This document shows, one piece after another, positions 13,985 through 15,010 of a stretch of DNA of 49,377 nucleotides. A program made the translations under genes and the position numbers. The DNA is taken from NCBI GenBank assembly GCA_043826455.1, contig JBDRQD010000073.1, positions 1-49,377 on the forward strand. The letters run 5' to 3'. Source of the stretch: Candidatus Bathyarchaeota archaeon. Its GTDB lineage: Archaea > Thermoproteota > Bathyarchaeia > TCS64. Positions within the stretch are counted from its first letter, which is position 1. Each line of letters starts with the position of its first letter. A model generated the notes under the pieces. It saw only the letters and a list, made by a program, of their open reading frames with translations. It was not told the origin of the DNA and did no database searches.

Positions 13985-14194
13985 TTATGTTGGAGTGTTA
14001 CCCTTCATCCTTTCCAGGAGCTCACTGATCTCTATGGATACTTCCTCGTACCTCTCCCGGGCCTCAGGGGACTGGGAGTACATGTACCTGTCCCGCTCCT
14101 CTGAGAGCCGTTTGTACTTGTACTCTAGCCAGAGGCTCTCGGCTTCCATGTGTTTGATCTCTGAGCCACAGTAGGGGCAGGTGCCTTTCTCCAT
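13985..14194 (-). CDS. Small protein with CPxCG knuckle and helical tail
   Basis: MEKGTCPYCGSE..., typical codon usage. Confidence 0.6.
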   Translation of the reverse strand: MEKGTCPYCGSEIKHMEAESLWLEYKYKRLSEERDRYMYSQSPEARERYEEVSIEISELLERMKGNTPT

Positions 14195-14303: not shown

Positions 14304-14365
14304 TTGGCCTCAGTGTAACTCTGATTCATCACTGTTCAATCTAATGCCTTCACATCATCGGCCAA
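14304..14365 (-). ncRNA. Box C/D methylation-guide sRNA (double guide)
   Basis: Minus strand: UUGGCC g AUGAUGU [GAAGGCAUUAGA] UUGA aca GUGAUGA [AUCAGAGUUACA] CUGA GGCCAA = 6-bp terminal stem, C, D', C' and D boxes, two 12-nt guides. Confidence 0.88.
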
Positions 14366-14413
14366 TGATACCATGCAACGGGTTGACAATAAGTGTGTCG
14401 AAAAAAAGGCGGG

Positions 14414-15010
14414 CTACTCTATCTTGAGCTGGGTGCCCTTGTCGTCCTGCAGCTTCTTGCTGAACACTATCTCCAGGACCCCGTTCCTGTAGGTGCTCCT
14501 CGCCGTGTCCTGGTCCACCTCCGCGGGGAGCTCCAACTCCTTATAGTACTTTCTCTCCGGGTTGTCCACGCTGATGGTTAGCCCGCCCGGGGTGGCGTAG
14601 AGCCATATGTCCTGCTTCTCCACGCCGGGGAGCTCGGCCAGCACCTTGACGCTGCCGTCGTCCTCGATGATGTCCACCAGGGGCTCCCGCTTGTCCTGCA
14701 GTTTAAGGGGGGAGCCGCCCTCCCCGGTGAGGCCCGGCTTCATGTTGCCGAACTCCCTGATGACGGGCTTGCCGTCGGGGCCGATCTTAACGCTGTAACC
14801 GTACACGAAGGGCCCGTACTCCCGCCGAATGGAGCCGTCCGGCTGCCTTATCTCCCTGTACGCGTCGCTGGGCATGGTGTCCTGCATCTCCTTGAAGGTC
14901 TCGGCCATCTCCTTCTCCATCTCCTCCATCATGCGCTCTATGTCGCCGAAGATGCTGCTGCGTCTGCCGAAGCGCTTAAACCACTCGTCCCAGAAGCTCA
15001 ACTTTCTCAC
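14414..15010 (-). CDS. hsp20: Archaeal small heat shock protein Hsp20
   Basis: GPFVYGYSVKIGPDGKPVIREFGN, REPLVDI, AELPGV and YRNGVLEI. Confidence 0.95.
   Translation of the reverse strand: MRKLSFWDEWFKRFGRRSSIFGDIERMMEEMEKEMAETFKEMQDTMPSDAYREIRQPDGSIRREYGPFVYGYSVKIGPDGKPVIREFGNMKPGLTGEGGSPLKLQDKREPLVDIIEDDGSVKVLAELPGVEKQDIWLYATPGGLTISVDNPERKYYKELELPAEVDQDTARSTYRNGVLEIVFSKKLQDDKGTQLKIE

Follow-up and report, generated by a model that had tools for sequence, protein, structure and literature searches.

A predicted dual-guide box C/D sRNA of Bathyarchaeia aimed at two 23S rRNA adenosines that are also methylated in yeast and humans

Can a single archaeal RNA guide methylation of two 23S rRNA adenosines which in yeast and humans are served by separate snoRNAs? 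This question is raised by a short intergenic element on the minus strand of the window, by which we mean the whole 49,377-nt stretch of Bathyarchaeia DNA that was analysed. The best reading of the element, which we hold with a probability of roughly 0.85, is that of an independently transcribed archaeal dual-guide box C/D sRNA predicted to guide 2'-O-methylation of 23S rRNA; its most likely targets are A1913 and A1938 (E. coli numbering is used throughout), two adenosines that are also marked in yeast and humans.

The sRNA gene and its surroundings

Minus-strand positions 14304..14365 are confirmed as an archaeal dual-guide box C/D sRNA gene. Including the terminal stem the gene is 62 nt long, an extent that follows from the sequence and from its conservation as a 60-nt island in related genomes. 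Read in the direction of the RNA, with all coordinates on the minus strand, it begins with the 5' arm of the terminal stem (14360..14365; stem I of the K-turn), which forms 6 bp with the 3' arm (14304..14309, placed by sequence and homolog comparison). The C box AUGAUGU (14352..14358) differs once from RUGAUGA and is followed by a 12-nt D' guide (14340..14351) aimed at A1938, which is position 2021 of the genome's own 23S rRNA and A2281 in yeast; the D' box UUGA (14336..14339) was placed by sequence and homolog alignment. A loop of 3 nt leads to a canonical C' box, GUGAUGA (14326..14332), and then come a second 12-nt guide (14314..14325), aimed at A1913 in the loop of helix H69 (own 23S position 1996; yeast A2256), and a canonical D box, CUGA (14310..14313). 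The initial annotation had described this minus-strand architecture, and every element was found where it had been placed. The order C, D', C', D within 62 nt fits the 50-70 nt of archaeal dual-guide sRNAs, and the conserved, compensating pairs of the terminal stem suggest that it closes a K-turn.

Comparison of the window with Rfam returned no family at the gathering score; the 18 weaker matches were all to C/D models, the best at 26.4 bits against 39, and none of 11 related loci reached the gathering threshold either. A resemblance to SNORD45 and SNORD115, also under threshold, reflects generic boxes only and was rejected, and the snR63/U46 and snR13/U15 families are absent among the 18 weak matches. 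Folding of the free RNA was no better than that of shuffled sequences (z -1.44), as is usual for C/D RNAs.

The element lies between hsp20 upstream (14414..15010, minus strand; NF041800 above its cut-off), which ends at 14414, and an ORF of 69 aa that starts at 14194 and is without family assignment. Of the 73 loci that match the exact pattern described below, 54 have a close hsp20 at most 1.5 kb upstream, and other families have different neighbours. A TATA-like element (14388..14392, minus strand), weak in this genome, precedes the C box by 34 to 30 nt. Of 70 distinct upstream regions from homologs, 69 have an AT box between -40 and -27 relative to the C box, as against 13 of 70 for a control window, and in the homologs a purine-rich, BRE-like stretch sits just upstream of the TATA-like element. 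Judged by their sequence, the AT box and purine stretch may constitute a BRE-TATA promoter, from which transcription would start at the sRNA stem; a run of seven T after the hsp20 stop codon (14401..14407, minus strand) is a likely terminator that would separate hsp20 from the sRNA. A sigma-70 scan, which is not applicable to archaea, found nothing. One metatranscriptome run contained 5% of the sampled words of the sequence; nine RNA contig pieces from four metatranscriptome runs fall on hsp20 and on the downstream ORF and none covers 14310..14391, in libraries of a type that loses 60-nt RNAs.

The genome (2.95 Mb, 97.66% complete, 7.21% contamination) also carries genes for fibrillarin (C18:18267-18932), Nop5 (C18:16654-17280) and an L7Ae-family protein (C61:24093-24371). 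From the observed anatomy, pairing, conservation and covariation, together with these three protein genes, we infer transcription, RNP assembly and methylation as follows. L7Ae, Nop5 and fibrillarin would assemble on the C/D K-turn and the C'/D' K-loop; the two guides would pair with nascent 23S rRNA, one at the H69 loop and the other 25 nt onward, before H71; and fibrillarin would 2'-O-methylate the base opposite the fifth nucleotide upstream of each box. Methylation of A1938, perhaps partial, would be helped by the tether that the stronger D arm provides. By the E. coli structure, we take A1938 to lie just before H71, not inside it.

Pairing with the 23S rRNA and the two arms compared

The genome's own 23S gene (C36:21297-24284) lies on a contig of 88.8 kb with a G+C content similar to that of the window contig. 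The D guide forms 10 Watson-Crick pairs with the H69 loop, from +2 to +11, and its U-A pair at +5 falls on position 1996; the D' guide forms eight contiguous pairs (+4 to +11) and, beyond an A-A mismatch at +3, one G-C pair at +2, and its +5 nucleotide faces position 2021. The duplex energies are -15.2 kcal/mol for the D arm and -10.9 kcal/mol for the D' arm. The D' pairing thus totals 9 bp with one mismatch, which is below a strict rule of nine contiguous base pairs. The two predicted targets are 25 nt apart, i.e. within 100 nt of each other on one rRNA. In the kin genomes with a suitable 23S sequence, 15 in number, the pairing of the D guide is 9-11 bp. The complementarity to 23S rRNA claimed at the outset thus stands in that both guides align to the cognate molecule, while the 12-nt 'targets' quoted with that claim were merely reverse complements of the guides; the proposed alignment to the cognate 23S gives 10 bp for the D arm, and leaves the D' arm, with 8 contiguous and 9 total base pairs, at the threshold. 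The positions derived from the D+5 rule, A1913 and A1938, agree with the alignment.

Chance would seldom produce this arrangement. Among 200,000 shuffled guide pairs searched against the genome's own 16S and 23S rRNA, 982 give 10 bp for the D guide and 26,168 (13%) give 8 bp for the D' guide alone, and only 4 give both within 100 nt of 16S or 23S. The combined double-guide score is 36 against a cut-off of 32, by our own arithmetic and following the rule as worded in the relevant passages of PMC6009581.

The numbering of the H69 loop follows Dennis et al. 2015 (PMC4644070). In the portions of that paper used here, alignment position A2178 is E. coli A1912, and guides of the same register as ours are assigned to A2179 and A2204; A2179 is therefore A1913, and A2204 is A1938. 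Yeast pseudouridine 2258 corresponds to E. coli 1915, according to the pertinent section of PMC2794176; with this offset of 343, A1913 is yeast A2256, and by the shared 25-nt spacing A1938 is A2281. The entries for these sites in PMC5199042 give snR63 as the guide for yeast Am2256 and snR13 as the guide for Am2280 and Am2281, which bears out the yeast assignments that the initial annotation had made; those in PMC8817022 list the human counterparts Am3739 (U46) and Am3764 (U15) and the Dictyostelium sites Am2522 and Am2547, with the second site only in Arabidopsis.

We consider methylation of A1913 through the D arm very probable. Methylation of A1938 through the D' arm is reasonably probable; it is the less certain of the two because the arm has only 8 contiguous base pairs and a conserved mismatch at +3, next to a D' box that is not canonical. 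Of 85 distinct homologs, 67 have A at D'+3 and the other 18 have U; C or G is never seen. A search of 50 genomes yielded 15 with the 23S stretch, 14 of them readable at the D' site; the target base is A in all 14, and 13 of these show the mismatch. A U at 1936 in the 23S rRNA of Bathyarchaeia, which would perfect the D' guide, is hence rejected, the base being A in these 14 kin, in the window genome and in 8 of 8 further genomes. An A at +3 of the A1938 guide also occurs in forms of the sRNA with swapped guides (see below) from four families (f17, f49, f50 and f55). The experiments with reconstituted RNPs described in part of PMC7229835 left an 8-bp substrate unmethylated, methylated those of 9-10 bp and, at lower temperature, were inhibited by more than 10 bp; the 10 bp of our D guide, from +2 to +11, match the 10-nt limit given there for archaeal RNPs. 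Fibrillarin contacts duplex positions 1-6 (structural passages of PMC5389607), and the D'+3 mismatch falls inside this stretch, yet a single mismatch is described as tolerated in a second guide near a strong first one (guide-scoring passages of PMC4644070 and PMC6009581). The idea that pairing is capped below 10+10 was dropped: none of the 85 homologs with the window's order reaches it, but one swapped form (L177) does, and as kin are not independent the absence in the former is a hint only.

Three other readings of these data have to be weighed. The D arm alone might methylate, at A1913, with the D' arm a conserved anchor or chaperone on 1937-1944 while H69 is being opened. The eight contiguous pairs with their conserved A-A mismatch, the inactivity of an 8-bp duplex in vitro (the same portion of PMC7229835), the degenerate D' and C' boxes of many homologs and the conserved non-methylating arms at the same helices in Pyrobaculum sR33 (entry in PMC6009581) all fit such a role; we nonetheless find it rather unlikely, as every homolog seen retains the U-A pair at +5 and its spacing to the D' box, even where the search had not requested them, whereas published anchors mismatch at +5. 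Moreover, several lineages carry U at +3 (the 18 of 85 above), and in the swapped forms, as in the tabulated Sac-sR125 and Iho sR109, the same guide occupies the D position with perfect pairing. If the D' arm does methylate, slippage at +3 could in principle lead to modification of A1937 as well, in the manner of yeast snR13 with Am2280 and Am2281; the target has a run of three A, and non-consensus C'/D' motifs permit two-site modification in snR13 (corresponding passage of PMC5389607). The energies make this very improbable: an A at +3 leaves the bulged register at -6.7 kcal/mol, 4 kcal/mol less stable than the -10.7 kcal/mol of the normal register, and only G at +3 favours the bulged register, with A1937 at +5 (-13.3 versus -10.7 kcal/mol). 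G is absent at +3 in the 85 homologs, which may be because it favours this register. Finally, that the motifs are a chance arrangement, or that the D' guide is aimed at some other RNA (16S, tRNA or mRNA), is barely credible. The D' guide is weak by itself and finds 7-bp matches in 16S and tRNA-Met, but conservation is confined to 60 nt, the stem covaries, a promoter-like element precedes it, and only the 4 shuffles in 200,000 do as well; no other site in rRNA or in a real tRNA pairs better than the 23S one. The 7-bp matches are the best that real 16S and tRNA offer as alternative targets, which were therefore discarded, the better-scoring 'tRNA' matches being spurious long-intron predictions; the rest of the genome contains few exact copies of the guide 10-mers, at unrelated sites. 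We thus retain the dual guide, with A1938 as the less secure of its two targets.

Distribution and the two guide orders

A BLAST search with a 171-nt query matched 27 of 41 relatives, the window genome included, and in 24 of the 26 other matching genomes the similarity barely exceeds the 60-nt element. An exact pattern run over a species collection gave 73 loci, of which 69 are sRNA-shaped; the other four (L044, L060, L078 and L098) lack C'/D' boxes and were rejected as chance matches. The records are labelled Bathyarchaeota, Bathyarchaeia or Bathycorpusculum in 64 of the 73 cases, and no Asgard-labelled record is among these window-order matches. A pattern demanding both guides is present in 98 of 401 genomes of the class (one, G362, without a C box) and in none with a reversed-pattern control; by family the counts are 56 of 70 in the window genome's own, 15 of 25 in f13, 8 of 18 in f29 and 7 of 104 in f11, with none in several other families of this 401-genome scan. 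Since such a pattern requires both guides, we also used the D guide alone as an anchor, which gave 131 of 401 genomes, chance rows included. Among the matches listed in this search, all sRNA-shaped rows of ten families (f1-f4, f10, f11, f13, f29, f33 and f35) have the A1938 guide in the same register and unchanged from +4 to +10; likewise among the matches listed, the A1913 guide is joined to a guide of the G1945 type in the nine f9 genomes and to others in f16 and f23, in one genome of f18 and in two of f26.

Within the 85 distinct homologs the two innermost stem pairs are kept without exception, with a C-G to G-C swap at the first pair in 22; the inner stem pairs are kept in 85, 85, 83 and 80 homologs, with compensatory changes. 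The length from C to D is 48-55 nt. The C box occurs as AUGAUGU, AUGAAGA, AUGAUGA or AUGACGA, and the D' box as UUGA, GCGA, CUGA, UAGA, GAGA and others in a constant register; D' and C' boxes are degenerate in many homologs. Conservation of boxes and guides in relatives, which had been proposed as a check of the gene, is thus found, with matches in 98 of 401 class genomes and a stem that covaries.

Some individual records deserve mention. Two contigs labelled Patescibacteria (L085) and Desulfaltia (L090) carry hsp20, thiI and the sRNA and are probably mis-binned Bathyarchaeia DNA. Two assemblies have two copies of the sRNA (G201 on C51 and C79; G520 on C127 and C161), by either duplication or contamination. 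In 4 of 23 other genomes read, the 23S gene has an insertion of ~560-780 nt between the target sites (at about E. coli 1923-1927), and all four keep the sRNA (loci L117/L119 in G041, L118 in G060, L157/L159 in G034 and L158/L160 in G457). These insertions are probably rRNA introns of the archaeal kind, located at a homing site that is already known. With the insertion between the sites, the two arms would have to wait for splicing, or reach across the intron, in order to pair at the same time.

The two guides also occur in swapped order. The A1938 guide is found in the D position in 92 of 281 genomes of the phylum, against 1 for the control. By reading of the rows, 74 of 280 other Thermoproteota genomes have the H69 guide in the D' and the A1938 guide in the D position: 40 of 42 in f38, 6 of 6 in f44, 7 of 17 in f50, 5 of 11 in f59, 3 of 3 in f55, 3 of 5 in f48, 2 of 3 in f49 and one each in f40 and f57, and within Bathyarchaeia 6 of 42 (f6, f9, f10 and f17). 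The remaining genomes with A1938 at D comprise 14 with the G1906-type partner of Sac-sR125, 1 with another partner and 3 that seem to be chance. An archaeal amoA is present in both f38 genomes that were tested, which points to f38 as an ammonia-oxidiser family. When 25 swapped loci were read against one cognate 23S, the D arm falls on A1938 in all 25, and the D' arm on A1913 in 15 and on A1912 in 8 f38 loci (L142, L143, L150, L173-L175, L178 and L179), with no clear D' box in 2; the f38 D' guide has 13 nt, by which the predicted target shifts from A1913 to A1912. Most swapped forms have an A1938 guide that pairs perfectly over 10-11 bp from the D position. Rows outside the class that at first resembled D' guides turned out to be the 3' halves of swapped sRNAs; the window's own order does recur beyond the class, namely in G569 and in L065, the latter labelled Thermoproteales. 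The A1913 D guide is present in 18 of 18 f52 genomes, two rows matching the Sac-sR113 core exactly, and also in f53, f60, f67 and f39, where partners differ and are often directed at G1945.

How the two orders are related can be judged from an intergenic slot shared by two genera of f10. One genome (G038) has the swapped and the other (G093) the window order in the same slot, on opposite strands, directly before what we take, from protein sequences, to be an RPA-like gene, and near a presumed Lhr-like helicase gene. Both orders at the same slot support the view that they derive from one old gene by circular permutation, and we lean towards this reading, with the same-slot evidence consisting of one genome pair in opposite orientation. 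Circular permutation of sRNA genes has been described for Pyrobaculum sR56/sR57 (sR56/sR57 passage of PMC6009581), where it took place within one genus and both targets are shifted by 2 nt; here the orders span classes of the phylum. A less favoured but serious alternative is that the two orders arose independently, with modules for A1913, A1938, G1906 and G1945 being shuffled and linked targets selected repeatedly. Guides are plainly exchanged among partners, and a common target by itself makes guides alike. The A1913 D guide is combined with G1945-type or orphan guides in several families, Sulfolobales-like ones among them, the A1938 D guide with a G1906-type guide in the 14 genomes above, many shared guides are regarded as convergent by Dennis et al. 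(in the discussion portion of PMC4644070), neighbouring genes differ between most families, and co-travel of boxes with guides is mixed: the odd C box accompanies the A1938 guide in swapped L142, L143, L175, L178 and L179, and the A1913 guide in swapped L145, L161 and L169. Against it stand the occurrence of both orders in the one f10 slot and in one class, the recurrence of the pair in at least nine families outside the class, and the window order in G569 and L065. On balance we prefer the reading in which a single old gene was permuted.

Two further observations concern the swapped forms. In six of them (L145, L161, L162, L163, L166 and L169, from f6, f10, f44 and f48) the H69 guide has a fixed mismatch at +8 with an unchanged 23S target, so that, as in the window order, it is the arm in the D' position that carries an internal mismatch; that the A at +8 of the A1913 guide tracks a change in H69 was rejected in 5 of 5 cognate 23S sequences. 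One f9 genome (G037) has two sRNAs with an A1913 guide (L146 and L176), one with a G1945-type partner and one with the swapped A1938 partner, and G097 is alike; these twins are a possible duplication intermediate.

Known guides, evolutionary reading and the guide repertoire

Both sites are already predicted targets in Sulfolobus and Ignicoccus, on separate sRNAs (matching supplement rows of PMC4644070). According to these rows, Iho sR91 and Sac-sR113 are expressed and share core sequence and register with our D guide, with A2179, i.e. A1913, as predicted target; the D' partner of the former is aimed at G2211, which is G1945 and by spacing yeast G2288, and that of the latter has no prediction, whereas here the partner is aimed at A1938. 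Sac-sR125 and Iho sR109 carry a guide for A2204, i.e. A1938, in the same register as ours, but in the D position and with +3 paired, where ours is in the D' position with a mismatch; their D' partner is directed at G2172 (~G1906). In other respects our sRNA resembles the archaeal dual guides surveyed in the consulted parts of Dennis 2015 and Lui 2018, with ~60 nt, 12-nt guides and a target hotspot at H68-H71; about half of the known archaeal C/D sRNAs counted there are double guides, and two targets lie within 100 nt of each other for 262 of 489 and 237 of 526 sRNAs, respectively. The combination of A1913 and A1938 on one RNA is absent from the matching supplement rows of these two studies. 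We found no published description of this sRNA family and no measured archaeal Am1913 or Am1938, data that recent modification maps may hold; the passages on archaeal sRNAs in the review PMC7994747 do not mention Bathyarchaeia.

The eukaryotic snR63/U46 and snR13/U15 act at the predicted target nucleotides of our sRNA, and their likeness to it is that of a guide dictated by its target. As given in the site entries cited above, in yeast and humans each of the two guides resides on its own, longer RNA, and snR13 also modifies A2280. Because guide sequences are dictated in this way, they cannot show descent of the eukaryotic snoRNAs from this RNA. The initial annotation had expected that one archaeal guide for both sites would be evolutionarily informative; what is informative is, rather, the spread of the pair through the phylum and its occurrence in two orders. 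Since Iho sR91 (same rows of PMC4644070) joins A1913 and G1945, one archaeal guide for two eukaryote-modified sites also has a precedent. New here are the same two guides in swapped order across Thermoproteota and the presence of both orders at one locus. The phylum-wide spread, the two orders and the two eukaryote-modified sites set the sRNA somewhat above the routine; its mechanism is ordinary.

A far-reaching joint reading, which we regard as improbable and offer as speculation, would place one dual-guide sRNA for Am1913 and Am1938 in the ancestor of Thermoproteota, perhaps shared with eukaryotes; it would survive as two circular permutants, belong to the very small set of rRNA guides that mesophiles have retained, and its halves would be ancestral to snR63/U46 and snR13/U15. 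In surveys of cultured archaea the precise sites of methylation mostly differed from lineage to lineage, and a search for sites common to archaeal sRNAs and old eukaryotic snoRNAs recovered only one to three (PMC3511168); if the reading were true, two more sites would be added to the handful of C/D sites that Hoeppner and Poole knew to be common to archaea and eukaryotes. A pair kept across many families, mesophiles too, at sites modified in yeast, humans and Dictyostelium is a candidate for an old selected modification, and the sites concern subunit bridge B2a and the contact with the A-site tRNA. The swapped form in ammonia-oxidising archaea offers a cultured system in which the methylations could be tested, and the paired orders would be a clean natural case of sRNA permutation.

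The repertoire of C/D sRNAs that guide rRNA modification in the window genome may be small, which our scans suggest and are too insensitive to prove. A strict scan for rRNA guides returned the sRNA as its sole candidate (1 of 1), and in a structural scan it was the only one of 10 candidates that reached at least 9 bp. Loose scans were at the level of reversed-target controls; one overlooked the sRNA itself owing to its C box, and they also overlook a C/D-like tRNA-Trp intron. We therefore do not claim that the sRNA is the only rRNA guide of this genome. The intron just mentioned lies in tRNA-Trp(cca), at 905-1038 of its contig; it has C/D-like boxes and a stretch complementary to the tRNA's own anticodon arm, and in this resembles the known cis-acting archaeal guide.
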